From Psammoneis japonica (taxonomy: Eukaryota): a stretch of DNA of 64,000 nt. The translations under genes and the position numbers were made by a program. The notes beneath the pieces were generated by a model, which saw only the letters and a list, made by a program, of their open reading frames with translations, did no database searches and had not been told where the DNA came from. The stretch is taken from assembly GCA_008632985.1 (NCBI GenBank), contig QPGO01000036.1, positions 248,001 to 312,000 on the forward strand, given 5' to 3'. Positions 14,127-47,599 of the stretch are shown one piece after another. The first letter of the stretch is position 1. Every line of letters starts with the position of its first letter.

Positions 14127-15726
14127 TTAGTCTATTTGAGGTTGTTTTTCACCGCAGGAAAGACAAAACTTTGCGTCAACGGGTAGCTTGGTTCCGCAAA
14201 ATACACAAAATTTTTTAGCTTCTTCTGCTGGCTCGTTTCTCGCTGCTGGTTCGATTACTTCAAGTATGCCATTCATTGGCGTTTTCTTTTCGACATATGA
14301 CTCGTCGTCACTCTCTTGAACGAGGGCAGCTTCTACTATTGTTGATTCTTGCAGGGAATTTAAGCCTTCTTGATGCCAATCCAGCAGCAAATTACTCAGT
14401 TCTTCAAAGCTATCTATAATGGCATCAGCGAATTCACGATGTATCGCGTCCTCCAAATAGTCTCCCGCCCCAATTCCCATTTTTATTTCCTTCATTTCCG
14501 ATATCTCCTTGACAAACTCCTCTACACTCTTGGATGGCGCCTTGTCCTTGTCTTCGGTTTCTGTTGCCTTTGGAACGTTAATTAGTTCCCTCGACCACAC
14601 ACTTCTCATATTCAAACCTTTTGCTGCCACTACATCTTTTGCAAAATCATCACCAACATGCACCCACCACGGTCCAACCATTTCTTGCAATACTTCGGGT
14701 GTCAGTTTGTTTTCTTGCAAGAGTGATCCAAACAAATCTTGTACATGGGGATGTTGACCAACCGTCCGCATGGCCTTTACATAGACACGGTTGTCAGGCT
14801 TGGCTACACCCACGCTTTCGGCATTGATACAAAAATCAAAATACTCTCCCAATCCTTCGACTGTCTGAGGAGACGAGTTGCCATCGGTGATGGCTCCAAT
14901 CAAGACCGGATTGCCTGACGATCCGGTTATACTGCTCTTGAGTTTCTCCAAACACTCTTTGGCATTCGAGGCTAAAAAAGAGGGGATGACATCGTGTCGC
15001 GCTCTTGTCCAGACGTGAAAGGCCTCGTCCGCAAGCGACATGGATTCCTCCTCTGAAAAATCATTGTGTTCTTCTAAAATGTACTGAATTGCATCCTTTC
15101 GCAAAAGGGTCAAAAGAACCGGTGCCTTGGGTTCATCTGGCGGTGCATCCTTCTCTTTTGTATCTTGTTCCATTAGTGGACAGTATCGCGGTTTTGACAC
15201 TTGAAACAATTCACCCATGACTTTTTCGACTCGAATGGGTTGATGAATGTTGGATCGATCCAAAAACTCAGCGAGCGCATCGTTAGCTGCCGCAATGGTT
15301 GGTGTCGTTTTCCATACGGTATTGTCCAGATCAAACGTAATTACCCGAACTTCACTTTTGGGAAGAGCCTTGAGCTGCTGCGCTTGTTCTGCTTCTCGTT
15401 GTCTGTACATACTCGAGTACAAACCATTTTGTGAGTGGGGCTACGAGTTTCAAGTTGCGAGATGAAACAACATACACAATTATTTTTCGGTCGACTCACT
15501 CTCCCTCATAGTACATTTTTTCCCATTTCGATACTGGTGTATCTTTTTCTTCGTTTGTGGTCTTGGACATGAAACTTGATATCCTAGCAGCAATCGAGTG
15601 CCGAGCTTGTAGTGACTGACGAGGAGGAGGAGGCGCAACAAGAGCCTTTGTAAATAGCATCCATGGAATCACCAACAGCAATCCGAGACAATTGAAAAAT
15701 CTTTTCGATGGAACCAGGATGCTCAT
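14127..15726 (-). CDS. HAD-superfamily hydrolase with signal/plastid-like presequence and C-terminal zinc ribbon; one intron near 15441-15499
   Basis: HAD motifs FDLDNT, ITDGN, KPD, HVGDD and CxxC...CxxC tail (KFCVFCG...KFCLSCG). Upstream ORF 15496-15726 has a hydrophobic leader. The exact splice phase is not resolved. Confidence 0.8.
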
Positions 15727-15980
15727 TCCTTCACACGTCCTTTTCGATCCTCGGGATTTAACTTAGCAGGACAACAATAAAGTGCTATGTCGGCACTTAC
15801 TTCTACTTGTTTGCTCGCTCTTGTTGGTTATTGTGGCTCTGTCACTCTGTCTTCGTCCAGATGAGGTCTGTTTACCATGTTTACGCGCGAGCTCGTATTT
15901 TTGTGGGAAAATTCCGGATTTCTCGTACGGGATGCGCGCGCGCGCTCGCCAACAAAATATTTTCAGCGATGGGTCGAACC

Positions 15981-16514
15981 GAAAGACATCATAGAATGTT
16001 GTGTTAGCGCTAGTTCCGTGTATCTGCGTGTTAAGTAGACACACGGATTGGATAAAGAAGCTTCATCAATTAGAACTTTTATATGTATCCCTTCGTCCCA
16101 GATCAGCTCAAGACGTCCTCAATGGGAGGATGGAGCTGGCCCATCCCTCCACAAACACCAAGTGACCCCACTTGGGCCAGACCACTCATGCGGAACGATC
16201 ACCAACCCACCACGCACAGAGACCACCGACACCACACTGAGCAGACAACAAAAACCTGGCAACATGCTGATGACGGCACCAGAATCAATTCGATGTCACG
16301 CGCACAGCCCAAGAAAACTGCACACAACAACCACCCCTTGTTCGTGTCGCTGCATTGACTGTGCAATGTCCACTTTCTCACAGTGCTGCAGGTTGAACGG
16401 AAAGACATCATAGAATGTTGTGTTGGTGCCAGTTCATTCCGTGCATGCATCTGCATGTTGTGCAGACACAAGGATTGGATGAAGAAGCTTCATCCATTGG
16501 AACTTTTGCACGCA
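15981..16514 (+). repeat. Direct duplication of about 110 bp: copy A 15981-16087 (unmutated) and copy B 16400-16514 (TpA-hypermutated)
   Basis: Both copies begin gaaagacatcatagaatgttgtgtt. 10 of 11 TpA in copy A are TpG or CpA in copy B. Confidence 0.9.
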
Positions 16515-17060
16515 GGGTCATCTTTGCTCCCCACAACCGTTGAAGACACTCGTTCAAGACACTCGTTCATCACAAACTTTTTCATTCCGCACATTGTTCT
16601 TTCTGTTTATTTTCACACACATGTTGCACTTGCCATGTGTTTTTCACACAATTTCCTCAAGTGGCAACCCCGTGCATCATTCCACGTCCTTTTCACGCAG
16701 GATTTCTGATCAAAAATTTTTCTCCCCAATTCGTTCCTGCGGGACTTCATCAATCTTGTCAACCGCCCCCCACAAGACTCAACATGCGTTGATCAGGACA
16801 TGATGAAAATGTCGTTTCATGACCGCAAATCTGTGACCACACAAATCCACGACCACACAAACCATGACGCAAGAACAAACTCATCACCCTTTCATTCCCT
16901 GCAACGCCACAAAGACATTGTCCCTCTCGCGACATGCGCGGTGCCACATCCAGAACCTTCTGCCCAATGCCAGAATGACGCACATGTTGTTTTTTGTCTG
17001 CATCCCAATGGATGTTGGTGCAGCCAATCCAGTGCCTTTTTTGGGTGTGTGCTCTTCTTC

Positions 17061-18056
17061 TCACAATGCTCTTTGTCGAATGCAAGGCACGCACCAAATC
17101 AGACCATGATGACATGCCCAGAATGATGCGCTGCTTTTTTTGTCACTGAACAATCTCACCCCATCATTGTTGTCCCTCTTTTTGGTTCTTGGAGATGAAG
17201 GATGGGATTCTTTTGTGTCGTGCACAATCACAATCGTGGATTCAACCAACGCCGCCCCAATGGGGGGCATGTTGCACCCTTTGGAGGTGGTCGTGGCCAT
17301 GTGATGGTGGTGTGGCAGGCTGAGTTGGCCGCATTTTTGGCGACATGGTTGATGCTGGTGCTGCTGTGGGAGGCCGAGTGGGCCCCATTGGTGGCAGGGG
17401 AGGATGTGCCGGTGCTGTTGGTGATGGTGGCAGTGGCGTCGGCATTGCAGCCGGCAGCCGGCACGGAGGTGCTTCCAGTCATGTGCAGCAGGTCGCAACG
17501 CCGATGCTGCTGATGGTGGTGGTGGAGGCCGTGGCGGGGCCATGGCTTTGGCTGTGGTGGCGGCCCTTGTGTTGGATGTGTTGCTGGACATTTGGATGAC
17601 ACTGGCGGTGTGGGAGGCCGGACCGGTGGTGTGGGAGGCCGAGCAGGCCGCGTTGGCAGTGACACGCTTGGTGCTGGCGGTGTGGGAGGCCGAGTGGGCC
17701 ACATTGGCGGTGTTGTGCTTGATGCTGGTGGTGTGGGAGGCCAGAATGGTGGTGTGGAAGGTCAAGCAGGCTGTGTTGGAGGTGACATGCTTGATGCTGG
17801 TGGTGTGGGAGGCTGAGCAGGTGGAGCTGGTGGCGACAGCGTTGGTGATGGCGGTCGTGGCATCAGCATTGCAACTGGCAGCCGTCACAGCGGCAGTCAT
17901 GCAGCAGGTTGCAACGCCGATGCTGCTGATGGTGGCAGTGGACACCATCATCGGAGCCGCACTTTGGCCGTGGTGGTGGCCCTCGTGCAGGACATCCCTG
18001 GCCCATGCATTCACGTTGCGTGAAAGTGCAGCGTGGTTTTGTGCTGTCCTCGACAA
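17061..18056 (-). pseudogene. Degenerate repetitive ORF relic with internal tandem repeats (SHTTS/SHTAS units)
   Basis: Repeated ggtggtgtgggaggc units at about 17300-17830. No Tyr. Identity unknown. Confidence 0.35.
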
Positions 18057-18405
18057 TCAACCAAGCCAGTCATTTGACAACTGACCTGACCCAACTGGCC
18101 AAAGCAGGCTTTGATGATTGTGTCTGGCAGTTGAACAGGGTCAAACAACCTGAGGTGGCTTTCACAAGACAACCAGCAAGAGGATGCATTTTTGGTCGAG
18201 AAAATTGCCACGTTGCGGAAAAGTGCGGTGCGGTTTGCACTGGAATTAACACAGAATTCCACAGGGACAGTGTTTTGAGCGCCATTGTTTGAACATGGAC
18301 ATTCATGCCAAATGAGGCACTCGACATGCCAGCGCTAATTTTGCGCAGCTTTTTTTCATGCGATGACACAAATGTGTGTGCAATCCTGGCTGCCGCGCTT
18401 TCCTG

Positions 18406-18567
18406 CGCAAGGTCTGACGAAGACAAAGACTTGAGTGATGACAAAGTTGTGAGAGAGAGACCAAGGCAACGAGGTTGCTTTCAGCAAAGCCCATCACAAT
18501 GGCTCCTCTTGTGTCCAATGGGATCATCAATGCTGTGTGTCAGAAAAACAGGGTGTGCGACACTGCA
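18406..18567 (-). repeat. 3' LTR of the Gypsy element (contains the empty piggyBac target site at 18527-18530)
   Basis: Aligns to 23475-23597 plus 24772-24808 (aagacaaagacttgagtgatgacaaagttgtgagagagagacc...cagaaaaa..gggtg.gcgacactgca). Confidence 0.9.
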
Positions 18568-18699
18568 CTCTTCCCTTCCATGATTCAAAATGTGAGAATC
18601 ATTCGGGACTCCAAAACTTTTTAAAAATTTCAACTCAAATTCCATGAGAGGAAACAAGGGAAACCCAAGTGTTGGGGAAAAAACCCTCAACCTCAAATT

Positions 18700-21600
18700 C
18701 GATGCGCGGGACGACGCGCCAAATGTTGAGTTGTTCCACCACATGAGGCACCCGTTGAACTGCAACAGTGCCATTGACGTGCACCTGAACAATGGGACAA
18801 GGGCCATGTGCCTGAGGTGCAAGCTTGGCAGGATCAACTGTCTTGACAAGTGCTTGATCGATGTTCTTGAAAAGCGGCGAGATCCACTGGAACTGGCAGG
18901 TCTAAAATCATGTCACGGTGGAACACCACAGCACCGGGTGAAACCTTGAGAGCCCAGGATGCCACACATTGCATGGCATGCATTGCCGTTGCCAAAGCAT
19001 TGTCCACTGGTTGATTGGCTTGTCCAACATTCTGTGGAGGATAAAGATGAAGCAAAGCATGCAAGACGTCACCAACAGTTTGATGCGCACGTTTGCATGC
19101 CGCATTGGCTTGTGGATTTCTGGATGGCAGCACATCTTCCACTCCAGCCTGTTGCAACAACAGTTGAAAATGTTCTCCAATAAATTCTCTGCCATTGTCA
19201 TGAATGCAGCGGTTGGGATGAAGACAACGAGACAACCAACAATTCTGAAATTGCTGGGAAATGTGTTCGGAGGTTTTGTTGTCCACACAGATGAGTTCCG
19301 TGACATTCGAAACTGCGCCAATGCAAGTCAAAGCGTTGAACTCAATCTCCTGGCCCTGAACATCAATCTTCCAGGGACCAATGAGGTCAACTGCAACTTC
19401 ATTCCATGGCAACAAAGATGCTTCGTGCTCAGGCAGTTCCCCATGTCTGGGACCCAAAGTTTTCAAACGTTGACAATCAGTGCAACAAAATTCTTTGCAG
19501 GTTCGACAAAGGACAGGATGACAAAAATGCATGCCAATGGTTGAATGCATGCGATGCATTCCTGCATGTCCCAATGTCCTGTGATGCCATTGAATCATGT
19601 CAGGCAATGAAGCAGCAGGGATGCAGATCTTCCAGTCTGTTGAAGGAGCATTGGGATGAGCTCGGTGACAAATCACAGGACATTGGCTCACACATTCAAT
19701 CACGAATCGTTCCGGATGTTGTTGTCACATGTCACTCAATTCCACATCAATGAATTGGTGCTCTTGAATTCGTTGCACAGTTGTTGGATTTTGCATTTCA
19801 TCAAGCGAAGGATGGTTCAAAAACGATTCACACAGTTCAGGATCATCAACAAAAGAGGAGCAGAATTGAGAGGGTTCTTCTCGACAGCAAGTGAAACACA
19901 ACACATGCTCTGGGTTGTCAAGTTCTTCTTCATGAGGTGGCATTGCAGTGTTGATTGCTTTGAAATCTGTCAGCTTGCCTTCATTTGGAGTGCACTTCCC
20001 TTCCGTTTGAGGATCCATGCATGTGGCAATTGCAAAAAGCAGTCTGCCAATGGGCTGTCCTTGCCGTCAACATGCTCAAAGGTTGGAGCAAAGTCTTCCA
20101 AGAAGAGCCTCCACCTGAGTGCTTGTTGAGAATTGAGCGCATGAAAGGTGAGATTTTTATGATCAGCAAAAACAGCACAATCAGCTCCCAATGACATGGA
20201 ACGGAATTCTTTGAAACACATGGCCACCGCGAGAAGTTCTTTCTTGATGGTTGAACAATTCTGCTGTGCTGAACTGAGCTTCCGCGACCAACATGCTGCT
20301 GGCTTTTGATCTTGCATGATTGCTGCACCCATTTGACAGTCGGAGGAATCGGTGCAAACATGGAAGGGCTTGTTGTGATTCGGGTGGACCCAAAGGGCAT
20401 CATCCATCATCAAAGTCTTCACATCTTTAAAGGCTTTCTGACACTGTGGAGTCCGCTCCAATTTGCTCTTGCCGGTCAACTTAGCAAGTGGAGCAAGTGC
20501 ATGAGAGTGACGGGGCCACACATTCTGACAGCAGGTTGCCGCACTGACAAAAGATTGTAGTTGTGTCACATTCTGAGGAGGTTGCATCCGCAATGCAGCA
20601 TCAACCTTTTTCTTCCAAGGTCGAACTCCTGCAGGTGTGAGCCAATGGCCCAGAAAATCTGTCTCTTGGATGCACCACTCACATTTGAGTGGATTGACTT
20701 TGAGATTGTTTTCTTCCAGCCTGGACAATGACTTGTCAAGTCAACGCATGTGAGCATCAAACGAATCATCAAATTGAGCAACATCATCAATGTGGGCCTC
20801 GACATTGAGTCCGTTTGCCACTTTTTCAATGACAGCCTGAGCAACATCTGGTGAGGTCTTAAATCCCATGGCCAGCCTGCAAAGCTGGAATTTTCCAAAT
20901 GGAGTGACAATTGCACAAAGGTCCTTGAAGTCATCGTCCAGCTCAATGTGACAGCAAAACATGGTGAGGTCCAACTTGGTCAAAAATTTGCACCCTGATC
21001 GTCGGTGTAAAACATCCTGAACAACCTTGTCCAACTCTCAAAAGTCAGATGCCCATCTTGCTCGTTCATCTTTCTTGGGAGTTGCAAAAGTTCCTGCTGC
21101 CCATTCCGTTGGTCCCACTGGTTCTAGCACACCAGTGTCGCAAAGATGTTGCAGTTCCTTCTTGAAAACTGCCTCGTCTTGTTTGGACACTTTGTGGGCT
21201 TTGGAATGAAAGGGAGTGGCGTTGGCATCAACTTCCAAATGTGCAGTTTTGTGTGGATGTTTGCCGAGAGTCCCATCAGAAAGAGTTTCATGATTCTCAA
21301 GTGCGACTTGAAGTTCATCGCGTTGCTCCTGCATCAAATGAGTTTGTGATTGTGCCACTTTTTCGGTCGACACTTTTTCATGCTTTGCATCCAACATGAA
21401 GGATTGACTTGACAATTCTTCATTGGTTTTGTCCTCCTTGTTGTCGTCCAACACATCCAACCAATTCTGCACTTGGATCCAATGATTGGATTGCTTCATC
21501 GGGATCGTGGTGTCCAACCATTTCATGGCTGCAAACCTGAAATCCAATGCCACACCAGCTTCAGCTGGGAAGTCTTGACCCAACATCACATCACACTTGC

Positions 21601-23240
21601 ACTGTGAATCAAACACTTGAGCCACAATTCCACTTTGTGATGACATGTCGAGAGGATTCATGTCATCCGGCCACCATCTGAAAGCTCAGTTGTCCCTCAT
21701 CATTCACAGTTGGATTGGCTCCCTTGGGCAAAACTCGAGAATGCACAAGTGTGTCAGCACCTCCTGAATCTGATGATGTGCGCAACACTCGCTTGCTCTC
21801 TTGATTTTGCATTGTGCGCGCTGCCATCAATGTTGTGGGCACCACACTCAATGGCTTGGGAGTCACAGTTTTTGGGGTTGGCGCAGCATGCTCCAAGGCG
21901 CTGCCCATTTCTTCTTCATTCACAGCACAGGATTCCATCAGGTCCCCCACACTTTCATCAACATTGAAACACATGCGTTCATCACAACCACACAAAACAT
22001 GAAAAGATTGAGCGAAACGCTCTGACTCGGGCACTTCCGTCCCTTGTCAATTGTGCCAGCTGCGTTGGCCTTGAGGAAAACAACCACCTTGGTCGCATCC
22101 ATTTCCACCTCGCGTCTCACGAGGCCCTCCTTGATCGAAATGGTGCAACTCCATTTGCCAGTCACCAGGAGGAGCTGTTCCAGCTAGATTTCCATGGCCT
22201 TGGGCATCACCGTTGGCTTGGGTGCCATTTTGATGTTGACAATGAGATCCTCCTCCTTGGGAATTTTGTGATCCTTGGCAGCTGCCATGTCCTCAGCCAC
22301 CACAATTGCCTTGACTGCCACAGCCACCACGTCCTTGACCTTGGAAGTTGCCACGACCTCCTCGGCCTTGCGAACCTCTGCCTTGGAAGTTTCCATGGCC
22401 TCCACCTCGACCTCCACGGTCTGTCCTTGGTCAACAGTTTTGGTTGTCTGGACTCAAAATGCAATCCTTCCATTTGTGGTCATGATTGGCATGTGCTGGG
22501 CACCCAGACTCTGGATCAGCTCAAGTGTTGTTCCCTCGACTTCACCCAGAAGCTTGAGAGGATGAAGCATTGCTCTTTTGCTTCTTGCTCTGCTTTTTGT
22601 TGCTGCTCTTGTCAGCAAAGGATTTCTCATTGTTCACGCAGCTGACAATCTCGGCAAGACTGTCGTCAGCTGTTGATCGTCCTGCTCGAGTGTGCATCTC
22701 ATGCCACGGACGAGGAAAGCTGTTGAAGATCATCTTCTTCTTCTGAGCGTCATTGGCTTGAGGAGCATTTCCTGGTGACTTGTTAGAACAGCAAACCAAG
22801 GCCTCCATGTGATCAGCATGTGCCTGCACTTCAGATTTGAACAGTTTCTTCAGGGTCAGCAAACATTCAATCACAGTGTCGCGCGCCTCATTGTCACAAT
22901 GAGACAGGTGAAAACCACTCATCTCTTGATCAATTGTCAGCATCAGCAGTGGTGTCAGTCAAATTTGCCCATTTGACCTCAGCAGCATTGGTTGGTGCTT
23001 CTTTGAAATTGTCAAACAATTCTTTGCCAGCAGCAAACTCCAATTTCACGGCAATCTTACGAAAATGATCCTCAACAAACAACGAAGCTTCAGCGCCATG
23101 GGTGCCATCAAAATGCGGACACTTTCGAGCACGCGCACTGCCATCATCATGCCACTGACTCAATTTCACGTCCTCCAAATCAGAATGCTCAAATTTTGCC
23201 TCACAGTTGACACAGGGTTCTTTTAACGAATCACCCATCA
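18700..23240 (-). pseudogene. Gypsy gag-pol, fragmented by stops and frameshifts
   Basis: Protease VLRTSSDSGG (LLDSG), RT TPFGKF...MG...EAHIDD (YIDD), RNase H VCTDSSDCQMGA...SRKLSSAQQNC...KELL...DHKNL, integrase PWNEVAVDLIGPW...IHDNG.EF...NPQANA. Confidence 0.92.
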
Positions 23241-23474
23241 TGCAATGTGGAGCACAATTGCGAAACAGTCCTCTCCAGGGACTCCACCTTTGACTCCAAA
23301 TGATGCACTTGGCTTGCCAAATTCTGTTCGTGTTGTCTGTGTTGTTGAACTTGTTTCTGGTGGTCAATCACCCAAGCTGCTGCTCTTGCTTGTAATTCTC
23401 TTTTCTCATGTTTGGTCAATCTGTTTGCATTGCCCCCAGTCTCCATCCAGCTCTTGAGTCGACTGCAATTGCAG

Positions 23475-24808
23475 TGCAAGGTCCAACAAGACAAAGACTT
23501 GAGTGATGACAAAGTTGTGAGAGAGAGACCAGGCAACAAGGTTGCTTTCAGTGAAGCCCGTTGCAACGGCTCCCATTGCATCCAATGGGATCATTGACCC
23601 TTCAACCACCAGGGGGGAGCAAATCTCCGCAGGTGGAGATTTGCTCTGCTTGAGGATGTGTGCCGTGTCATGCACTTTTGCAACAACACAATGAACACAG
23701 TAAAACATGTGATGTCATGTGCAATCTGCGTAAAGTGTGCCACGTGCATTTGCTTGTGTGTTGGGAGCAAATCTCCACCGGCGGAGATTTGCTCCCAGGG
23801 TGTGGCATTGTTGCTCCATTTGTGACAGCAACTCATGACAAACTTCATTGTTGAAAGTTGAGATTTAGTTCCTCTTCATTCACAGATGAAGCTTGCAAAA
23901 AACCCGGCGTTGAAAGTTGACATTGAACTTTCTAAATTGCAAAAAGTGTGCCTCCAGATTTTCGGCGAATGCGCGCTCCAGAACAAAATCGCGCGAACAA
24001 AATGTTGTGTCAACAGGAATCATTCGGGTCCTGAGAGTCATCCCGTAGAAATTTTGTGGGAGAGCACTAAAAACAATTGTTGTCAGTCTGTCCATCCGTC
24101 CACACACGAATGTCAACTTCTTGGGAAATCGATTGAAATGCCATCTGATTGACGGCACAGTGTTTTGACTCACACAGTGATGAAGGCCAGCGCCGTCAAT
24201 CAGATGCAGCAGCATTTCAGCTCAGTTCCCGAAAAGTTGTTGGCTCTGATCACTCTCTAGCATGACATCATTTGCACTTCTGCACGCAATGGGAACATTT
24301 CGAAAATGACCCGTGACGTAAAAAGCACAAAACAATTGTGGACGCCTGTGGAATCTACACGTTTTTGTGCTGAAGCTGTTGTGTTCACACAATTTGTGCA
24401 AAAACGGACTTGACTGTCATCGGGTCAGGTGCATTTTTGCAAATGCATTGAAGAAAAATGCACCTGATCAGAAAACAGTCAAGTCCATTTTTTGCAAAGT
24501 TAAAATTCACTGAGGACAGACAGACAGACTTTTCAACAATTGTCTTGGTGCTGTTCTGCACATTTCTGCGCAAATGACTCTACAGCGCAAAAGATTGCCG
24601 CTGTTTTGTGTTTTCCTTGTGTAAAATGTCAATTGTGACCCACGTGACATTTTCGAATGATTCCTGTTGCACCGGCACCGTGTGTCTGAAATTGCTTCAT
24701 TTGCCACATTTGTGGCGTGAGCGGGCAAATCTCCACCCGTGGTGATGGAGATTTGCTCAATGGTTGAAGGGCCAATGCCATCAGAAAAATGGGGTGCGCG
24801 ACACTGCA
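23475..24808 (-). repeat. 5' LTR of the Gypsy element, split by an insertion (23475-23597 and 24772-24808)
   Basis: Colinear with the 3' LTR on both sides of the 1174-bp insert. Confidence 0.88.
23598..24771. mobile_element. Non-autonomous piggyBac-like DNA transposon (MITE-like) nested in the 5' LTR
   Basis: TIRs cccttcaacca...tggttgaaggg. Subterminal palindromes gcaaatctcc...ggagatttgctc at about 23617, 23765 and 24725. Flanks ttga / ccaa and empty site tcaa all fit a mutated TTAA target. No transposase is visible. Confidence 0.8.
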
Positions 24809-25853
24809 TCCTACGACGGTGTGGAGAATGACCAGAAAATGACTGTGACCCAAAAATCGCACACTGTTGCACCAAAGTGCAGCGTGATGCGTGACGTGGA
24901 CCAGGGACATGGTGGTGGACATTTGGATGACGGCGATGGTTGTGACCCTGCCATGCACAATCCACAGTGCTGCATGTTTAGCACAAAAACTGTGGAAATG
25001 TCCACAGCCGGTCAAATGCCAAATTTCGGCATTTCCTGGAAAGCCGTGCTTGTCTCCCTTGAGCAGCGCAATTTTGGAGAAAAATGGCGGTTTGTCGAAT
25101 GCAACAACTGAGCCGAACCCGATGATTGGCTTTTGAAGGTTGAAATGTGCAGTTCACACACAGGTCCAACAGCCCTGATGGGGGGCTGGACACACTCACA
25201 AGAGTGCTTGGGGGTGCTCAGAGGCAACGCAAAACAACACAGGCGAAGTGCGAGAAAATTGCAAAATCACGAGCTAATTGAAACCAGGCCTGCGGGGAGC
25301 ATTGACCACTTGTCTTTCTTTGTGGGTGTGGGTGCATGTGTGCCGTTGCATGCTGCATTGCCTGCATGCACGCAGGGCCCTGCCGCCGGGGCCGGTGTTG
25401 TGGCGGCTGAGTGGCGTGGCCACCGCACCGGTGATGTGGATGACCGTCACATTTGATGTCTCATGCCATTTTTGGGGCTGCAGCGAGGTGCACGGACACT
25501 CTTTTTTTTCCAATTTATCGCCACAACAGTGCATCACACAAACTCACTTGTTGTTTGACATGTTTTCCCCAACATGACTTTTTCGTGTAGAATTCACGAC
25601 AAATTGTCTTTGTGTGCAACTGAGTGCATTTTTGAACATGCCACGCCGGCAATCCCAATTTTTCAGAACTTTCGAGCTCTCCTGAAAAACCGTGCCACGC
25701 ACCCATCATGGGGAATTTGTCGATTTTTTAGGATGTCCCCACAACCTCTCATGTCCTCAATGACAATTCCAAGAATCCGAAGAATTCATCTGCACTGAAC
25801 AACCCATGCCCTTTCAAAATCCGAGGGACACACTTTCAAATTCAGATGGACAA

Positions 25854-25935
25854 CCCAACTGCCCGACTGCCCAACTGCCCGACTGCCCCACTGCCCGACT
25901 GCCCAACTGCCCGACCCCCCGACTGCCCGACTGCC
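25854..25935 (+). repeat. 8-bp microsatellite (gcccgact/gcccaact)n
   Basis: About ten units that vary mainly by CG versus CA. Confidence 0.9.
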
Positions 25936-26044
25936 GGACCGACACGAAAAAGTCTGCAATCATCAACCACTGAGTGGTCAATGAAAATGCCTCATGGGCA
26001 CTTTCAATCGTGTGGAAAAATGACCCCGGGACACATTGAAATTT

Positions 26045-26220
26045 GCGTGCGTGGAATCACACTGGAACACTCGGCAATGGCAATGACCACATGGATTTGG
26101 TGTCTTTTGTACGTGCGTGAAGTCACACTGGGACATTTGGCACTGTCACATGCACTTGTAGATTTGGTGTCTTTTGCACTTGCGTGAAGTCACACTGGGA
26201 CATTGGGTGCTGTCACATGC
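26045..26220 (+). repeat. Degenerate tandem repeat, about 70-bp unit, 2.5 copies
   Basis: gcgtgaagtcacactgggacat...gatttggtgtcttttg repeated. Copies differ by gtac/gcac and ca/tg swaps. Confidence 0.75.
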
Positions 26221-26506
26221 CCCAGCAGAATTGGCGCACAGTTCTACGATGCGCAGAAAGCAACCAGAACACTGGGCACTTCCAAAATCACCAGTGGAAT
26301 TGGCACAAGTTGCACATGTGGAAGAAGACACTAGCTGGCTGCTCTCTAGCTGGCTGGAGAGGACATTCTGTGAGCGTTGCCTTTGTGTGTGGATTTTGCA
26401 CTCACTTTTTTCAAACACAGGCCAAACAGAATGATCATCATCAGCCAACAACGGCAAGCAACTGCATTGCTCAATCCACTTGTAAACGTGCACAACAAGC
26501 AATCCG

Positions 26507-27928
26507 ATGAGTTCTCCGCATTACAGTCAGAAGAAGCATCGAGTTGATGACATTTTCAGCCCTGTTTGCAGCCCCCGCATCATGCAAACAACGACTCCAG
26601 CGCGTTTTGCTAACAACTGCATGCCGACTGGCACTGCTGCTGGTGCGATTGGATCTTTCCCAGCATCGCTTTCCTCCAATCACACTGCTTTCAATGCTTC
26701 ATCTATTTTTGGTCCTTCACCTGTTTGCGGCACTCCTGCCGCCACACCCCCCACCAACGTCTGTGTTTTAGCTCGCAGCAACGTGAACCAAGAACCTCCC
26801 GAAGACATGGAGCTGGACGACGATGACACGCTGCTCGATGCATTGGCAGAAAGCTTTGCACCTGCCAAAGGAACAATTTATGATGTCAGGAATCCCCATG
26901 ATGCAATCCCGCCATTGTTCCGAAGTCTGCCAAGTTCTCACAGTGTCATCGTGGAAGAATCACAGGAAAAGTTGGAAAAGATCGAAAAGCTGCTAGCGTC
27001 AAAGAAGGAAATGGAAGAATCCAGGAAGAAGCAGCGAGAAAACACATGTGAGGAAAAGTGCAGACTTGAAGATGAACCAGCCAAAGCTGAAGCCACATTC
27101 GAGAAAAAGAAGAAAGAGTTCAAAAAAGCAGAATCTCGGCTCAACAGGGAAACAAAGCAAACAAACGAATGTGAAAGGGAGACTGCGGAACTCAGCATGG
27201 CACGCACATGATGTGATCTTTTGTCTGTCTTAAAATGTCCAATCTAACATAAATTGTTTGTCCTCGTTTATGTGGAACAGCAACGTGAGGAAGAGAGGGA
27301 AGTGATCCGCCTGGCAAAAGCCTTCGCTCGCGAATCGAACCGACCTCGTCGTTGGATGGCTGAGGCTACGGTTGACATGAACCGTCTTCGCCAAATGTTG
27401 TGGTCCTCTTTTAATGTCAAAGGCACAAGGGAGCAGCTTGAAGAGGACGAGTTTTCTGGTAGAAGGCTTCAGATGATCTTGCGCATTTGTCGGATTTTCG
27501 GTTTGGATCACAACGGAGGGTGGAGAGATCAATGGAAGAATCCTCCTCATTCTCTCTTTCTACGACACATGCCATCGGCCCCCAGCATGCCTGACAATTC
27601 TGGTGCAACAAAGAAAAAACTGGCAGAGCAAGTTGGAGATGTGCCATTGATGCCGCTGCGAGAAAGAGACATTCTGAAGGAGCCGGTCTCGGCGTCGACC
27701 TCGACCTCAACGTCTGCAACTCAAGGAAACTCTGCATTGGCTACAACCTCAGCTTCAGGCCAAGACAACTCCTCCGACCAACACAAGGACATGTGTTCTG
27801 GCTTGTCGCTAGAAGAATTGGAAGCGGCGTTGAAGGTGTGCTGCAAGGGAGGCATCCCCACAGCGGATGTCGAGCGCACTGTCGAGCTTGCAAGAAAAAC
27901 TCGGCCGACCGACCTTAGAGTTATTTGA
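26507..27928 (+). pseudogene. Unidentified coiled-coil protein gene or TE ORF, only partly mutated
   Basis: ORFs 26507-27211 and 27254-27928 read like real protein (EEK-rich coil, GGWRDQWKNPP) with a probable decayed intron between them. Confidence 0.45.
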
Positions 27929-28399
27929 CTCGTCTGTTCTGTGTTGGTTTGTTCGTTCGTTCGTTTGTTCCATCTCCACCAAAAAGACCAAAAGACTGCC
28001 ATGTGCCGGCACAACCTTCGTTGGGTGTGTTGATTCTTAAATGGTTCAACATGGTCCAAAATCAAACACGATCGAGGCATTGGCTGCTTCTTCTGCAGTT
28101 TCTAAAACAGTGCGTGGATTTCTTTGATTCAACCTTTCCTCAATTCGACAATGTCACAACCCAAACCGAGTGCAACCCAAACTGGCACTGCATTCTCTCA
28201 CTGACCGTTGGCCCATGAAGAAAAAGACGGACACTTGGAAGCAATCACACGCCAGTTTGTCCTCCAATGACATCTTGGCGCTGCAATGCTCTGTACAGCA
28301 GAGAAGGAAAAGAACCCATTTGTTAGATCCCGACGAGACTTTGATTTTGCTGTGCCAATGAATGGCGTCATCTCATGGCGGACATTCTCTCATCATTCT

Positions 28400-30600
28400 T
28401 TTCATTCCTCCATCATGTCGATTTCGTCATCTTCATCTTGTTCATCGTTCCCCAACTTGAACGTTGACGATTGTTGGTTTTCACCTGTGGCATGTGTCAT
28501 GACTTGGTCCCAGAAATGTGCTGCACCTTTGCTCCAAAACTTTGTGTGCTGTGCCGGCAGTTTCACAGGATTGAAAGACGAAAGTCGAGAACATCCGTTT
28601 CAAAGCCATTCCCGTCCATGCGAGTTCACACTTGTTGTCCGGATTAAACTTGCGACTTGTCGTTTCACCATCTTCATTGTCTTTGTCTTGTTCCTCCAGC
28701 TGTTCGAGCCCTTCTCCAGTCCAATTCATTTGGACCATCATGAGTCGAGTGCATCGCTTGATGCTTTGGGCCCACCCTCGCAGATGGCACATGCCAGTGA
28801 TGGGCTTTTGCATTCCAAGACTTCACCTGTGATGTAGTTTTGCTGAGCATTCAAACCAACCTTGGTGTGATGGCATGTGTGACCCATGTCTTTGACGCAA
28901 AAAATCGCCACAGATGCCGACTGGGACGCATCTTCTGTGAGCTTGTTAAATTTCTTTTCCCTTCGTTGTTCCTTGGTGAGTTTATGTTCCCAATTGCTCT
29001 GCATGTGTGCCCGTTGTCTCGCTTGGATTTGCTCCACGACCTTTTGTTCCGTTTGACTTGGATCTAACACTGCTTGGTCTCCCAGAACTTGGGTGAAATT
29101 CTTGAGAGTCAAGCGAGGCTCTGGCGCTGGAATGAGTCCTGCCGCTTGCGCATCTTGAATCTTACGCTGCTTCTCCTCCCGTCGCTTTTTGCGATGTCAC
29201 TTCAGTTCCCGCTTGGTCAGGTGCAGGGTCAGCTGTTTTGCTGGGCCATCCACAGCACCTGGTGGCTTGATGGGTGCAATGTGTTGAACCAAGGTGCATG
29301 TCTTCGAGTGCGACAGTGACGCCTGATCCCAACACTGCTTGTCCAGTTGCTGTGGCTTGTTTTCTTCTACTTTTGACTTGTCTTCGTGTTCTGCATTGTT
29401 GCCAGCGTCTGGTTGTTGCAATTGTGCTTGCGTCTGCTTCGACAAGGCTGCTCCTTCTTGCGCAGCTACGGCCTTTTTCAATCTGCTGGGCAAGAGCTCC
29501 ATGTCCCACCACTCCATCACTGGTGGCATGTGGGTCTTGTCTGAAGCTTCTGCCCGGGGCGGCAAGGATGTGTCTTGCTGCGTCCCTGTCGTTCCACACA
29601 CACTGGCCATGCCCGTTGATTCCACATGCATTCCTGCTTTGCATCCGCTGACAAATCCAGATTGAGTTGCGTTCGCAGCACGCTGTCGCTTCCGCTCTGC
29701 CAATTCAACAAAGGCACCGGGCTCCACAAACACCATGGCCTTGTGCTGCTTCCGTGGTTTGCTTGCGTGCACCAGTCTTTCATTGACGTCTTCCTGCGGA
29801 GTGCCACTTGTCGTTGCCAATTTCTTTTGATTCTTTGCCGATTTAGTCGCTTGTTTCTCTTCCTCTTCTTCCTCTTGATGAGCCAAGCAAGGATTGGATG
29901 GTTTTTCCTTTTCTGTGGCTTCAATGTTGGCTTGGTGGTGGCAAAAGTTGGACCTGCAGTCGACATGTCTAGCTCACAGTGCTTGGCTCATTTCACTGGT
30001 GGCTGAGCAACATCATCATTGGTGTGCTTGGGCGGAGCCATTCCGGCTGACTGACCCTTTGAGCTGCCAATTTAGCCATGATGCTTTCTTGCAGTGCCAG
30101 AGCTTTGGTCTTTGGGTCTGCCGCAGCCGCAGCAGTTTTAGAAGCATGCACCTCATCATTTGCATTTTCACCGGGTGACGACACTTTCGTGATTGAGGGC
30201 AAAAAAGAAGAGAACGTGGAAGATCTCTTCTTGTCGACCCAATTCAGCCAGGGAAGGGGCTCGCATCCATCATTCACCTGTTTTTCCTTGTTCTTTCGCA
30301 GCCGCAGCAGTTTTAGAAGCATGCACCTCATTGTTTGCATTTTCACCAGGTGATGACACTTTCGTGATTGAGGGCAAAACAGAAGAGAACGTGGAAGATC
30401 TCTTCTTGTCGACCCAATTCGGCCAGGGAAGGGGCTCGCATCCATCACTCACCTGTTTTTCCTCGTTCTTTGGTGTTTTGAACTGTCTTGTACATTGAGT
30501 CTTGGGATCCTTCCTCTTGAGATGACGAGATGGTTGTGCCATCCTTGGCTTTCCTCTTTTTTACTTGAGTCTGGTCCCATGTCCCATCTCGAATGCAGGA
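28400..30600 (-). pseudogene. PRP3: Inactivated copy of U4/U6 snRNP splicing factor Prp3
   Basis: Motifs PPVMEWWD, QHIAPIKPP, LTLHLTKRELK*HRKKRREEKQ...AAGLIPAPEPRLTLKNF, AVLDPSQTEQKV, KLTKEQRREKK, LNAQQN, EGGPK, IKRCTRLM, NKCELAWTG. In-frame TGA at 29197-29199 plus frameshifts. Confidence 0.85.
30121..30465. repeat. Tandem duplication of about 176 bp in the 5' part of the PRP3 relic
   Basis: cgcagccgcagcagttttagaagcatgcacctcat...gggaaggggctcgcatccatca occurs twice. Confidence 0.9.
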
Positions 30601-30899
30601 AATCTCTGAAAAGCCATCAGAGCAGGTTCTTGAATTTTCCCGACCCCTCCTCCCCACCCCAAACTCCCCACGGCCAGATGCAGGGTCAGTGCATTGTGCA
30701 TTCTTCAGATTTGTCAGGTCCTGAAGATTTCAAACGACATTGTCATCACCTGACATTTTCAGAATTTTGTGAAAGCATCATTCGCATCACATGTAAGACT
30801 TGCTGTGCTTGAATGCCACACTGTTGCTTGATTGCATGCAGTCAACATGCGGTCTGTCAATCGCAGCCAAAATTTAAAAATTGCACTGGAAGTGTGGGT

Positions 30900-32860
30900 T
30901 AGCCGGCACTGGTGTTGCTGGGCAAAGGTGTGACAGCACTTAAAAACCAGGTTTGGTTTTTTTCTGTTCCCCAGCCATGTCTTTCACACTGCCAAGAGAA
31001 GCTGTTGTGTGGCAAATTGCAGCCATTTTGGCTGTTGGCAGCATTCACAAACTTTGTCTTTTGTGTCAAGAACATTTCCCCCTTTTTGAAGAAGAAGGCC
31101 AAAAGGCTTGTGGCACATTTTTTGGAAAGGAAAGATGAGCAAGAAGGGCACTCCAGACTTCCCAAAGCACCTGTGGAAAGGCTAGAAGGACACTTGCAAG
31201 TGTTTTGAAAAGAAGGAAAACATTGACAATGAGGCTTCAGCAACGTTGAGTTTGTCAACATTTTTCATGCTCCTTCTGGTGTGAAACTGTGCTGCCCTGA
31301 TTCTGCAGTCAAAGATGGCAAGGATGGTTTGCTTCAATGGTCTTGTGAAAGACCAGGTCTTGTTTGGGGTGCAAAGGCTGCTGAGAATGAAAGAGATCAC
31401 TCCATCCATTCGCGCAAGGAGACAAACAAGTCAGAGACAAAGAAGCAGGTGAAGGACAAGAAGGAGCTGGTGCCCGCAGACCACAAGCCATCAGCAGAGA
31501 AAAAAGCTTTGCCAGAAGGGAAAATTGGAGTGCTGTGTGCCATGGCTGAGGAAAGCGATGATGTGGTGCAGGTTGGGTGCATGAAAAAACAGCATTCTCG
31601 TTTTCTTGTTGAGCCAGGCAAAAGGGCGGTCTCAGAGCACAATGAACCATTGCACAAACACTTGGATCATGAAGTTTGACATGAAGTCACTGATCACTGC
31701 AAATGTGAGGAAGGAGCAGCCTCAGCACTCAAGCATGGAAATGAAAATTTGAGGGTGACAAAGGTTGGGAAAACTGAAGAAGCGAGTTCATTGAGCTCAA
31801 GCAGCTCCATTCCCACGCTTCTGTTTCCATCTCACACACTCATCTCAGTCTTTCAACTTGGATGTGGCTCATGTTCAGACAATGGGGGAGGTGATTGGCC
31901 TTGGTTGTGGGTTGCACAATGTGCGCAAGAATCAAGGGGCAGCCGCACTTGACAGGCAGATGGGCACCTGTTTGACAAAGGTTGATGGTTTCACTTGTCA
32001 GCCACAAAGTGACCTCCTTGTTGCAGGTCCTGGTGACAAGGCAAAGTTCCAACACGGTCGCAGCAAGCACTGTCAAGATGTGCCAGCCTGGGCTGCAGCA
32101 GCAACTCTCCAAGCTGATTTGACAAATTTGGCCACTGGCAAAGCTGCGACATTTGACCGACAGCTTGTCAAAGTTTTGGCCAAGGTCATGCACTGTGAAC
32201 CAACCAAAGTCTGTCTCAGGGGCGTGCTGACCATGGCAGCTGTTTGCAGCATCAGTTTCTTCAGCTCAGACTGTGCAAATGTGCAAACGACACATTTGAG
32301 AAGGTGACAAGGAGATGATGGCCCAAGATGAAAAAGAAGGAAAGCTGCCAAGCAAGCAAGAGAAATGCCATCTGTTGGCGCATGGTTTGACAAATTCAGA
32401 CAGATGGGTGTCCCTGCTGGCTGCTTCTGTGAGTTCATTGGCAACATCAATTTGCGCCAATTTGGAGAGCATGTGCAGTTGCACTTGCCACTCCCAGAAT
32501 TGGGCAAGGAGGCAGCCAGGATCATTGCTGACCACATGACCTTGCCACTGGCGGCAGCAGGCAATGTCTGACACCATGCCACCAGCGGCTCTTCAGTTCT
32601 TGAAGAAGATGGACTTGTGTGCTGCATCATCCCCAAAAAGGGTGCAGCACTTGTGCAGGGCAAGGCAGGCAGATCAAATGGGAGGAGCAGCTTTTGAAGT
32701 GCAACAGTGGCTTGAAGGCAATTGAGAACAACAACAAGAGAGCCAAGTGGGCTGAGCGAGATCAGCGCAGCAGCTGGCGAGGCATTGGACAAATCAAATC
32801 ATCACTTCTGGCATTCCTGTCATCAATTTTCTCTGACGCTGTTTTCATGCTTTTGCCCTG
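30900..32860 (+). pseudogene. Degraded unidentified coding relic
   Basis: Successive protein-like plus-strand ORF pieces (31281-31679, 31858-32307, 32365-32571) with no Tyr. I recognise no family. Confidence 0.35.
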
Positions 32861-33756
32861 ATGGTGCAAATGTCAATCAAGCTCCAAGAACCTGAGCAAC
32901 AAAAATCAACACAGTGTTTCTGCACATTGTGGGAATGTGCAGAGCCCCCACGAAGCTGTTTTCCCGCCAAGGTCAGGCCGATTTCAAGCTCATCTCAAAA
33001 CACAGCAGGTGACGTGCCGCACAACACAGCCACTGTCAAATCTCTTGGTGCATCTTGAGCCTCTCTCTGGGGGATCTCAGTTCTCCGTGTCCATGCCAGC
33101 ATTGTCTTTGTTTGTTTCGTGCTTCTGCTTCTGGATGTTTCTCAACTCTTGCCCACGTGCACACTCGATGCATGCAGCAGCTGTTGCGGCAGTCAACAGG
33201 AATCATTTGAAAATGCCGCATCAGTCATGATTGACATTTTGCACAAAGAAAAATGCAAAATCATGCAGAAATGCACACACAATGTGATTCAAGACAGTGG
33301 CTGAAATTCTGTGCAATGACTTGGAGAGCTGCGACCACTGTTCCTCCCACTCAGCTGTGAGAACGGCGAGCATGTTTGTCCGCGTGAAAATGTTCGGGTG
33401 TGCTAAATCAAACAGCAACCGGGAATTAGGAACTTTCTGTTCTCCTCCAATTTTTGAATGCATCACACCATCACTGCCACCCGAGAATAAAACCCCGGTT
33501 GTTGTTGTTTGTATTGTCATTGTTTCTGAATGTTTGCAAATCACGTGGTCAGTGCCCCCCCCCCCGAAGTGGGGTACCTGGTGTCGTACGCCGTTGATGC
33601 ACTGCGCACTGCGCCGGCACGGTGCTGGCGGCTGCTGGCTGCGCTGCGTTGCAATTTGCTACGGTACCGGTATTCCCAAGCCTATTTTCTAGCGTCCTCC
33701 TCTTTGTATCTTTATTCATACGCCATCAGGAAGCCTACGCTCTGCCTGAGACGGAA

Positions 33757-35531
33757 ATGCCATCATCTTCTTCTGATTTGAAGAACACTGCTGATTTGAA
33801 TAATCATTACGGTACAAGCAACTTGAAAGAAGACAAAAAAGTCACAGTCAACGGTGGCGACTCGGAGGAGAAGCGAGTTTATCCCCTCAACATGGATCTA
33901 GGTGACGTCGTATCTCAAGAACCCCTGCGCAATCACTCGTTGAGCGAATCGTTTGATGATCAAGATGACAGCATTGTCATACCTCATCATCACACTCGGC
34001 GACACGAATTGTTCAAGACGATTGCAGGCGTTGCGGGTAACGTATTGGAATGGTGAGGAGTGCAGGGGACTCCTTGTCTCTTTTTTCTTACTTTTCTCAC
34101 CTTACTCATTTTCGACGCTTGTGCATCAGGTACGACTTTGCTGTGTTTGGATTCTTTGGTGACATTATCGCAGACGTCTTCTTTCCGCCACAAAATGGCC
34201 ACGCAGCAATTGTGGAGAGTTTTGCAATTTTTGGTGGTGCTTTCTTGATGCGGCCTGTAGGAGGAATGATGATGGGCTACATTGGGGACGTTTATGGACG
34301 TAAGCGGGCCTTGGAGCTATCCATATTTCTCATGGCGGTACCTACCTTTTGCATGGGATGCCTTCCATCCTATGATCAAGTTGGATGGATTTCACCAGTT
34401 CTCTTGACCGTCGTTCGACTCCTGCAGGGCTTATCCGTGGGCGGACAGCTCATGTCGTCTCTTGTCTTTACTCTAGAGGGTCATCCACCCTCAAAATGGG
34501 GATTGTACGGATCCTACGTCATGGCATCTGCAAACTTGGGAACACTCTTGGGCGGTATCATTGGTTTCGTTCTGAGAGCGTTGTTGAACCAGTCGCAGTT
34601 AGAAACATGGGGTTGGCGCATTCCCTTTCTGTCCGGGATTCTGGTGAGCATCTCCGGAATATACCTCAAGTATTATTGCGACTCGGACGACGAAATCCAC
34701 GCAGAGGTACCGGGGGAACAGCCTGTAAATCCTATCCGACAAGCTTTTGCAAAAGAAAATCGACGTTCTCTGTTAGCGGCTTCATTGGTTCCAATGCTAT
34801 GGTCAGCAGGGTTCTACCTTACTTTTGTATGGATGGCAATCTTTATGAACACGCTGGTCCACCCTCAAGTGCCAAATGCGCTTGCGGTGAATTCGTCGGC
34901 ACTCTTTGTCAGCGTATGCTTGCTCTTTCCTGTTGCTGGCATCTTGTCAGACAGGTACGGCCGCAAGTTTATAATGGCCACTGGAGGATTAAGCATGGGG
35001 ATTTTCAGTCCGTTTCTGGTTTTCATCATTGGAACGGCGGGCAGTGGCGTTACTGCCTTTTTTGCTCAATCTCTGTTGGGTATCGCTCTGAGTTTCTGGG
35101 GTGCTCCCATGTGTGCGTGGCTCGTGGAGGCCTTTCCTCCCGCGGCGCGACTGACGTCGGTAGCGATTGGATATAACTTGGCCCAAGCCACAATTGGAGG
35201 TTTGACTCCATCGCTCGCCACCATTATGGTCGATAGAATTGGTGTAAACAGTCCCGGAATTCTGCTAACCGCATTGGCGACTTTGTCACTTATCGGTCTA
35301 CTCTGTGTTGCACCACCACCTCCACCACTAGTCGGCGAAGAACTTGTGGCTTCAGATGGAGGAAATTCAAGCAGACCGATAGTTACGAGTGATGGTTACG
35401 CATTGCCACCCGGAGAATTGGACGGAGAGACACAAGGAAGCAATGTCGAGGAACAGGATGAGGAACAATACGATAGCACGGTCGAATCAGAACCAGACAA
35501 CGGAACCTTCCACGAGCACGAGATCACATAA
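33757..35531 (+). CDS. MFS transporter, ProP/MHS (proline-betaine-like) family; intron 34053-34129
   Basis: GNVLEW|YDFAVFG, FLMRPVGG...GDVYGRK, RLLQGLSVGG, WGWRIPFL, SDRYGRK. Confidence 0.92.
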
Positions 35532-46400: not shown

Positions 46401-46627
46401 AGCCACAGCACCAACTGCAGGTGCTGCTCTGGCAAGAGAAGACAGAAGACAAAAGCAAAAACAGCTGCTGCTGGCTGCACAACACTGAGCAGTGCTCTCC
46501 AGACATGCAACACATGCTGGTGAGTGAAAATCACAAAGAGTGCTCAGCCCCTCTTGCCAGTGATGGCATGGTTGTGTCTCTTGCCCATCAATGTGCATGA
46601 GGGGTGGCACAGCTGCAACATGCTGTG

Positions 46628-47365
46628 CACCACATCTGCCTTTGTGGGCCATCTGCTTGCTCACTTTTGCCATGTTTGGCCTGCAAGCCACAAGCGCTCC
46701 CAGTTCTGTCTCTCCGCAGATGAAGCCACTGCAGCAGTGCAGAGCACCAGCCAAAAACCAGCCAGTCAAAAGTCAATCAAGCACAGAGAAGTCAAGTTTG
46801 CTTTGCAATGCTTGGATGAGACACAAGTCCACTGCAGATGCCATGATTTGTCATGTCCCTCAGATTTGTGCAGCTGGCATGGCAGCATGTGATGCACAGA
46901 CAATGTGATGTAGAAATTTCTTGAGCTCTCTGGCTTGATCACACCACATCCCAAAGAGATTAAAATCCTGTGCATGAGCAACAAAACATCTTGGTGGTGC
47001 ACCACATCTGCCTCTCTGTGGGCCATCTGCTTGCTCACTTTTGCCATGTTTGGCCCACAAGCCACAAGTGCTCCCAACTCTGACTCTCTGCAGCTGAAGC
47101 CACTGCAGCAGTGCAGAGCACCAGCCAAAACCCAGCCAGTCAAAAGTCAATTAAGCACAAAAAAGTCAAATTTGCTTTGAAATGCTTGGACAAGACACAA
47201 GTCCACTGCAGATGCCAAGATTCATCATGTGCCTCAGATTTGTGCAACTGGCATGGCAGCATGTGATGCACAGACAATGTGATGCAGAAATTTCTTGAGC
47301 TCTCTGGCTTGATCACACCACATCCCAAAGAGATTAAAGTCCTGCGCATGAGCAACAAAACATCT
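46628..47365 (+). repeat. Tandem duplication, about 372-bp unit x2
   Basis: caccacatctgcct...catgagcaacaaaacatcttg at about 46628 and 47000. Confidence 0.9.
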
Positions 47366-47599
47366 TGATGTTCTCAAGCAGCAGCACACCAAAACCCCAT
47401 TCACATGATCCTGAGTCAGTGCCTTGAAGACACACATTTCTTTCATGTGGCAATTTTGACAACAAAGGTGCAAAGCCAGTTTTTTCTAAATCCCCACACA
47501 GAAAGGTGTTTGAGTGATCAGCACAGCAGGTGTGCATGCTCACAAGGGTGCGGAGAGAGCAAGTGATGAGAAGCATCCTTTCTGGGTGTTCTTTTCCTG

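Follow-up and report, generated by a model that had tools for sequence, protein, structure and literature searches.

Related hypermutation systems

The first report of DNA hypermutation specific for the dinucleotide TpA dates from 2026 and concerns a single chlorarachniophyte, Bigelowiella natans, with a mechanism that is so far only proposed (bioRxiv 10.64898/2026.01.13.699255). According to the main text of that preprint, 231 of the 302 nuclear point mutations found in mutation-accumulation lines of B. natans fell in an integrated giant-virus region and a virophage region. The mutations of these viral regions were nearly all A-to-G or T-to-C changes, and all of them occurred at TpA, which became either TpG or CpA. 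The genome is also described as holding 124 clusters that are poor in TpA, rich in CpA and TpG, and enriched in reverse-transcriptase and DDE domains. As the agent, Mettrop et al. (2026) propose an ADAT2-like DNA adenine deaminase, on the basis of prediction only (bioRxiv 10.64898/2026.01.13.699255). In a full-text literature search, this was the only description found of a TpA hypermutation signature, and none was found for diatoms. Here, two blocks of DNA with such a signature are described within a single stretch of 64,000 nucleotides, called the window below, from a diatom-like stramenopile.

The signature matches that of B. natans, now in another eukaryotic lineage and at saturation. In both cases, A-to-G or T-to-C changes at TpA yield both products and are confined to discrete regions with normal flanks. 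As the preprint presents them, the targets in B. natans are limited to certain non-host regions and may include a region present in a single copy, and the long-term trace is of the kind seen here, namely the TpA-poor, CpA- and TpG-rich clusters with reverse-transcriptase and DDE domains. Nevertheless, the two cases differ in several respects. The host here is a diatom-like stramenopile rather than a chlorarachniophyte, and a duplicated host gene (PRP3) is among the targets. Depletion is near total, with observed/expected ratios (obs/exp) for TpA of 0.04-0.08, against 0.45 in the giant-virus region described in the preprint. CpG is co-depleted here, whereas a word search of the main text of the preprint, supplements excluded, gave no instance of 'CpG'. 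De novo mutations were observed in the lines of B. natans, while the process described here is seen through its long-term trace in the sequence. Finally, the edges can here be placed within tens of bases, beside genes that are covered in spliced form.

In repeat-induced point mutation (RIP), C changes to T mostly at CpA, which creates TpA and removes CpA and TpG, and both duplicates are mutated. The transposons of diatoms carry CpG methylation, and the RNA of retroelements is edited by ADAR. RIP, the fungal process for which RIPCAL was described (PMC2621366), resembles the present locus in that its mutations are all transitions, inactivate repeats and transposons, and leave behind a sharply limited dinucleotide scar. 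Its direction is nevertheless the reverse of what was found, as TpA is lost here and CpA and TpG are gained. In addition, of the repeat pair described below only the copy inside the domain (B) is altered while the other (A) is ordinary, stretches without extra depth are converted, and the host is not a fungus. Methylation-driven decay of CpG through deamination of 5-methylcytosine (PMC7140373) similarly turns CpG into TpG and CpA in silenced repeats and explains the part of the signature that concerns CpG, but it leaves TpA untouched. Editing of retroelement cDNA by APOBEC (PMC4866542), like that of RNA by ADAR, concentrates deamination-type transitions in mobile elements. These edits are made before integration, on one strand and, for APOBEC, in other contexts; by contrast, the changes described here fall on both strands without bias to either, follow integration and reach past the element.

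Two sharply bounded domains

Domain 1 (approximately 16089-33403) has an obs/exp of 0.08 for TpA and of 0.54 for CpG, the latter with patchy loss, against 1.66 for CA and 1.63 for TG. In domain 2 (approximately 43690-54986), the corresponding values are 0.04, 0.11, 1.89 and 1.83, and in the rest of the window, outside both domains, they are 0.62, 0.98, 1.16 and 1.17. Overall, TpA is reduced by 92-96% in the two domains and CpG by 46-89%. In 500-base bins, both blocks contain 0-7 TpA where base composition predicts 15-40, and TG+CA is nearly doubled, while other dinucleotides and G+C are little altered. Compared with the flanks, a deficit of 1055 TA+CG in domain 1 stands against an excess of 1039 TG+CA, and a deficit of 1009 in domain 2 against an excess of 980. 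The original prediction, which had been made from the letters of the window, held that both strands were affected. In effect, CA and TG are equally enriched in both domains (1808 TG and 1750 CA in domain 1; 1325 and 1298 in domain 2), and no skew of TG versus CA above flank level was found in them.

The edges of the domains are defined with a precision of tens of bases. On the left of domain 1, successive TpA lie at 16080, 16082 and 16086 and then at 16411, 16608 and 18247; on its right, the TpA at 31183 is followed by those at 33404, 33427 and 33488. For domain 2, 43663 is followed by 43818 and 44900 at one edge, and 54394 by 54987 at the other. Sharpness is the same at all four edges in the window, each of which adjoins genes. 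The neighbors of domain 1 are a gene for a HAD-type hydrolase (14127-15787, minus strand), with a 97-bp GT-AG intron at 15403-15499, and a gene for an MFS transporter (33700-35531, plus strand), with a 77-bp intron at approximately 34052-34128. Both have normal composition, and contigs of sequencing run X2 cover both without these introns. From the missing introns, X2 appears to be transcript-derived, although it is labelled 'DNA?'. The edges of domain 1 lie about 300 bp past the ends of the intron-less contigs of these two divergent genes. No tRNA genes that might act as boundary elements were found within the window. The window also carries a gene for the 26S proteasome subunit RPN2, in two exons, and one for a protein with helicase-associated (HA) domains. 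For a flanking dehydrogenase E1 gene, the best named relatives are all from diatoms, at 56-59% identity, and the database searched contained no identical protein; on these grounds the host is taken to be a diatom-like stramenopile and not B. natans.

Depletion of TpA is uniform over domain 1, whereas that of CpG is patchy, with CpG near normal at 26.5-28 kb and almost absent at 31-33 kb. Consequently, the loss of CpG is treated here as a second, slower process, and a faster one is needed beyond CpG decay. The loss of CpG would be explained most simply by deamination of 5-methylcytosine in methylated, silent DNA. The losses of TpA and CpG may also be unrelated processes that merely share one target.

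Contents of the domains

A decayed Ty3/gypsy retrotransposon occupies 18407-23594 of domain 1 on the minus strand, where matches to an integrase (18837-19724, minus strand) and to RT-RNaseH (19973-20740, minus strand) were found, and self-alignment gives it LTR-like ends at 18407-18527 and 23476-23594. Domain 1 also contains a PRP3 (U4/U6 snRNP) pseudogene (28484-29973, minus strand) that is spread over three reading frames, implying two frameshifts. Domain 2 is rich in tandem arrays (46625-47367, 49044-49801 and 51291-53148), which repeat every 374, 252 and 186/371 bp and whose units are 73-93% identical. Since the copies within these arrays differ by TG/CA doublets, the arrays must be older than at least part of the conversion. 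A Pfam scan of 49 open reading frames (ORFs) of domain 2 gave no credible family, and no viral gene was found. Read from composition and protein matches together, the affected DNA comprises a transposon, a pseudogene of host origin and unclassified DNA.

Some other features of domain 1 deserve mention. The segment at 17000-18100 has 59% G+C, tandem units of 51 and 72 bp, and overlapping ORFs of 331, 219 and 177 amino acids on both strands that match no family; the length of these ORFs is probably a by-product of TGA being the only stop left. At 26486-27925, on the plus strand, there are two long Glu/Lys-rich ORFs with CpG near normal and TpA depleted by about 85%. A run contig that is 86% alike suggests a paralogue of this segment elsewhere, and the segment may represent another host gene that was duplicated, as well as the most recent part of the domain. 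In addition, one contig of the DNA run connects 18504 with 24781 through 39 other letters, leaving out the 6.3-kb gypsy stretch; it is a form of the locus, or a paralogue, without the gypsy element.

A repeat pair across the edge of domain 1

A self-BLAST of the window revealed a single repeat that links DNA outside the domains to DNA inside them. Its two copies, 15972-16080 and 16391-16507 in the match, are 80% identical over 117 columns (E = 1e-24) and form a direct repeat with a spacing of 419 bp, as against the distance of about 420 bp originally given. A 25-base core that is identical in both occurs exactly twice in the window, compared with no occurrence in 100 shuffles. Copy A of this 117-bp repeat (15972-16088) is unconverted and has 11 TpA and 6 CpG, while copy B (16391-16515) is converted and has one TpA left. 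Between them lie the first 302 bp of domain 1 (16089-16390), where TpA is absent and CpG still present. The placement of A just outside the domain, which had also been predicted, agrees with the position of its last TpA at 16086, the last one before the long gap noted above. Copy A is situated 185-300 bp past 15787, where the intron-less contig of the HAD-type gene ends, on the 5′ side of that gene. Just to its left, on the same 5′ side, a short (CG)n run and CpG-dense stretch at 15935-15948 contrasts strongly with the CpG-poor domain 150 bp away.

The central claim of the original prediction was that 10 of the 11 TpA of A had been converted in B, together with CG>TG/CA changes and few other substitutions. 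Global alignment bears this out. At the TpA sites of A, copy B reads TG five times and CA five times, and one TpA is retained (15992 in A, 16411 in B); the retained site has an ATAG context, which elsewhere in the domains is efficiently converted. None of the six CpG of A is preserved in B, where four have changed to TG or CA and two by transversion. Outside TpA and CpG, the differences between the copies amount to a single transition and three transversions, apart from an indel of 8 bases. The comparison of TpA with other sites that had been suggested for this pair gives transitions at 10 of 22 TpA bases and at 1 of 83 bases that belong to neither TpA nor CpG (Fisher p = 2e-7).

The composition of the copies indicates which of them has changed. 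Copy A is at expectation, with 11 TA against 11.1 expected and 14 TG+CA against 13.8, although its TpA obs/exp of about 1.0 is higher than the average of 0.62 outside the domains. Copy B is anomalous, with 1 TA against 9.2 expected and 30 TG+CA against 15.6. Each TA/TG or TA/CA difference is a transition and thus formally reversible, so that A could instead have gained its TpA by RIP-type C-to-T changes at CpA and TpG, with B nearer to the ancestor. The site at 16084, which is TG in A and CG in B, opposite to the trend at CpG, would fit a C-to-T change in A. Nevertheless, this reversed history is very improbable, and the unlikeness to fungal RIP noted in the original prediction is supported. 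Copy A shows no depletion of TG+CA and has TpA at expectation, while B has twice the TG+CA and one tenth of the TpA expected. Moreover, 10 of the 11 TpA of A are altered in B, whereas only 10 of the 28 aligned TG or CA steps of B correspond to TA in A, which places the saturation in B, and the tyrosine columns discussed below agree. Thus, that B is the converted form of an ancestor bearing TpA is supported indirectly but strongly, through the composition of the pair and the polarity seen in the rest of the domain. When metagenome contigs were searched for exact matches to the 25-base core, no further copy of the unit was found.

Most probably, then, A and B are both old copies of a single 117-bp sequence, and their differences are explained by a process that converts TpA to TG or CA in place in the domain. 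The duplication is not recent, given that the copies differ at 4 of the 83 sites outside TpA and CpG and by the 8-base indel. As a rough figure, the loss of 10 of 11 TpA would correspond to about 2.4 events per site, against about 0.05 per site between the copies elsewhere, and the TpA process would have been some 50 times faster than the background.

Ancestral presence of TpA and CpG

The polarity of the change was examined in the protein-coding remains of domain 1. Fragments of the gypsy pol were aligned with eight intact homologues at 57-67% identity, and a tyrosine was taken as conserved when present in at least six of them. None of the 20 conserved tyrosine columns is kept: eight now read Cys (TGY), nine His (CAY) and three another residue, the last all in one poorly aligned fragment. 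In contrast to this complete loss, conserved Trp and Phe are retained in 18 of 20 and 24 of 32 columns, respectively. A comparison of PRP3 with six homologues gives the same picture, since none of six conserved tyrosines remains and four have become Cys, one His and one Val. Taken together, all 26 tyrosine columns are lost, and 22 of them now encode Cys or His, as TAY to TGY or CAY changes would produce.

Conserved arginines behave in a related way. Of 37 such columns in the gypsy fragments, 19 are kept and 12 have turned into Gln, His, Cys or Trp through CGN to CAN or TGN changes, and 7 of 24 in PRP3 read His, Gln or Cys. In this respect the CpG deficit of the domains (obs/exp 0.54 and 0.11) is matched by TpG and CpA, as in methylation-driven decay. 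The changes in Tyr and Arg columns imply that the ancestors had TpA and CpG and that these were lost in the domain copies. Hence, on the alignments used here, the direction from TpA to TG or CA can be regarded as settled for the domain, and with the composition of the repeat pair it supports the predicted direction from an A-like state to B.

A donor genome or element family that was free of TA from the start was also considered as the source of the domains. Two environmental relatives of the gypsy pol, confirmed as two loci among 58 pattern matches, have a TpA obs/exp of 0.65, and this candidate was rejected because these relatives have ordinary composition.

Action on DNA after insertion

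Repeats that lie wholly within the domains provide evidence about the stage at which the changes were made. Over 4100 aligned bases, pairs of such repeats differ by 45 doublets of TG versus CA, compared with 36 other adjacent double mismatches. A doublet of this kind implies that an ancestral TA or CG was converted in opposite ways in the two copies. The LTR-like pair of the gypsy element shows four doublets, three sites with CG in one copy and TG or CA in the other, and just two further differences in 119 bases. If these 120-bp ends are LTRs, and their position suggests so, the two had the same sequence when the element inserted, and the changes occurred afterwards, on DNA and in place.

These pairs bear directly on the possibility that the RNA or cDNA of a retroelement was edited before integration, by an ADAR-like A-to-I activity or something similar, and then inserted. 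Domain 1 does contain a retrotransposon, and ADAR enzymes are said in the preprint on B. natans to prefer a U before the edited A (bioRxiv 10.64898/2026.01.13.699255). However, TG and CA products are equally frequent, TG/CA doublets between LTR-like ends could not have arisen before integration, and the domain also spans a host pseudogene and stretches at single-contig depth. Such editing is therefore hardly credible as the source of the domains, and for the gypsy element itself it would be excluded if the 120-bp pair are the LTRs. As far as composition and alignments reach, they establish the signature, with its direction, saturation, both-strand and post-insertion action and sharp edges.

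Sequence context of surviving sites

Some information about specificity comes from the 113 TpA that survive in the domains. Of these, 27 are in TTAA (6.7-fold relative to its share outside) and 31 in CTAA/TTAG (3.3-fold). By contrast, ATAT and ATAC/GTAT, which make up 22% of the TpA outside, include none of the 113 survivors. Excesses of 4-mer products lean to editing of an A that is followed by T or C, a tendency that is confounded by CpG-derived products and is not firm. In the survivors alone, a preference at the -2 base would look the same as one at the +1 base.

The opposite bias is seen in one place outside the domains, where a low-complexity block at 1700-1930 is composed of CTAG, CTAC and GTAG words. 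The bin at 1501-2000 contains 51 TpA against 32 expected and 44 TG+CA against 63 expected. The TpA of this block are in C-TA contexts; in the domains, CTAG and CTAA belong to the best-surviving contexts, and CTAC/GTAG is about average.

Contigs from sequencing runs

Contigs from three sequencing runs of one sample were aligned to the window at 80% likeness. Those of the DNA run X1 differ from the TA-free sequence at only 1 of 610, 2 of 670, 7 of 1290 and 8 of 2243 bases. This match rules out a polishing quirk and mixed strand-dependent calls, though not every platform effect, and X1 may be the source of the assembly and hence not independent of it. For an artefact of sequencing, base-calling or assembly, brought about by a DNA modification confined to the domains, it can be said that X1 is possibly the assembly's own data and that no library type is recorded for the runs. 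Nevertheless, separately built contigs repeat the assembly's choice of TG or CA over up to 2243 bases, where strand-dependent misreading would give mixed calls. In addition, genes in the domain carry frameshifts and transversions as well, and TpA is read normally a few bases beyond the edges. An artefact is thus highly improbable.

The PRP3 sequence in run X2 is 92-94% like the domain copy, with differences at 52 of 619, 18 of 314 and 61 of 791 bases. This divergence indicates that PRP3 has a second copy and that the one in the domain, which carries two frameshifts, is a pseudogene. Among the X2 pieces listed, likeness to the domains does not exceed 92-94%, which carries no indication on whether the domains are silent. 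At 31.2-33.2 kb of domain 1, the summed contig depth is 67-96, against 55-71 for single contigs, and this part is fully converted. Full conversion at about single-contig depth argues against a trigger based on repetition, contig depth being a weak measure.

Differences between the assembly and the contigs are suggestive only. Among 40 of the 2371 rows that differ, the window has TG or CA where other contigs have TA in eight cases and CG in 11; the reverse direction was seen four times and other changes 17 times. At 26538, 26622, 27036 and 27044, every contig of the DNA run departs from the assembly, in each case by CpG against TpG or CpA, and the window has the decayed form at three of these sites and the opposite at one. 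The decay of CpG in domain 1 may therefore still be segregating or differ between haplotypes.

Proposed mechanism

The history that would account for these domains is one in which a sharply bounded, non-functional block underwent hypermutation at the DNA level, with TpA becoming TpG or CpA through a change of A to G on either strand, and with slower decay of CpG to TpG and CpA alongside. By analogy with what is proposed for B. natans, the chemistry would be deamination of adenine in a T-A context. The target may be a silent, CpG-methylated chromatin state that ends a few hundred bases from the neighboring genes, and such an end short of the genes would explain the escape of copy A, which lies 5′ of a gene covered in spliced form.

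An adenine deaminase is the agent that we would put first, with somewhat less than even confidence. It is less likely, yet still a serious alternative, that the thymine of TpA is attacked, either by oxidation to a mispairing base of the 5-hydroxymethyluracil type or through a bias of repair directed at T:G. Such repair has a precedent in the very-short-patch system of E. coli, which is T:G-directed and erodes CTAG. A change of TpA to CpA on one strand is a change of TpA to TpG on the other, so that A-to-G and T-to-C look alike in the sequence. The window itself offers nothing against an attack on thymine; the authors of the work on B. natans favor an ADAT2-like adenine deaminase, from prediction only (bioRxiv 10.64898/2026.01.13.699255). 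No deaminase gene was seen among the large ORFs of the window.

As to what selects the target, the original prediction suggested position or chromatin domain, and this is the best fit to the data: it agrees with the sharp edges and with the conversion of stretches at single-contig depth. The part of that suggestion that is less secure concerns the pair itself, as a difference in age between the copies would have a similar outcome. In such a case, A or the block that carries it would have arrived or been copied after an episode of hypermutation, and the edge would be an insertion junction. The last TpA of A is the last before the domain, and clear homology between A and B ends at the domain edge. 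Besides, contigs of the DNA run break around A, and the summed depth reaches 632 in the bin 15835-16501, compared with about 55-71 for single contigs, which means that the unit or its neighbor may be a dispersed repeat. However, the duplication is not recent by the differences outside TpA and CpG, all four domain edges are equally sharp and all abut genes, and residual polymorphism at TpA and CpG between assembly and run suggests that change is ongoing. A late arrival of A is accordingly unlikely, though not negligible, and targeting by position or chromatin is preferred.

Implications

The locus has consequences for how such sequences are found, read and used. Scans of composition for loss of TpA with a matching gain of TG and CA can locate targets in any genome. 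The domains also constitute an annotation hazard, with long false ORFs, as only TGA stops remain, and genes without tyrosine codons. At the same time, they offer natural before-and-after material for the study of specificity and targeting, in the form of the repeat pair, the LTR-like ends and the pseudogene with a differing partner copy in X2.

More broadly, the comparison with B. natans raises the idea of a defence by deamination of adenine at TpA that would be shared by stramenopiles and rhizarians and be ancient in SAR or wider. Silent chromatin, and neither repetition nor viral origin, would direct this defence, which would go to completion and halt within some hundreds of bases of active promoters. 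In combination with methylation of CpG, it would turn every palindromic pyrimidine-purine step (TA and CG) into TG or CA, possibly through one deaminase complex for adenine and (methyl)cytosine. This scheme is tentative, and we consider it rather doubtful in its full form. The saturated end state found in a diatom-like alga suggests that the process is widespread among marine protists.
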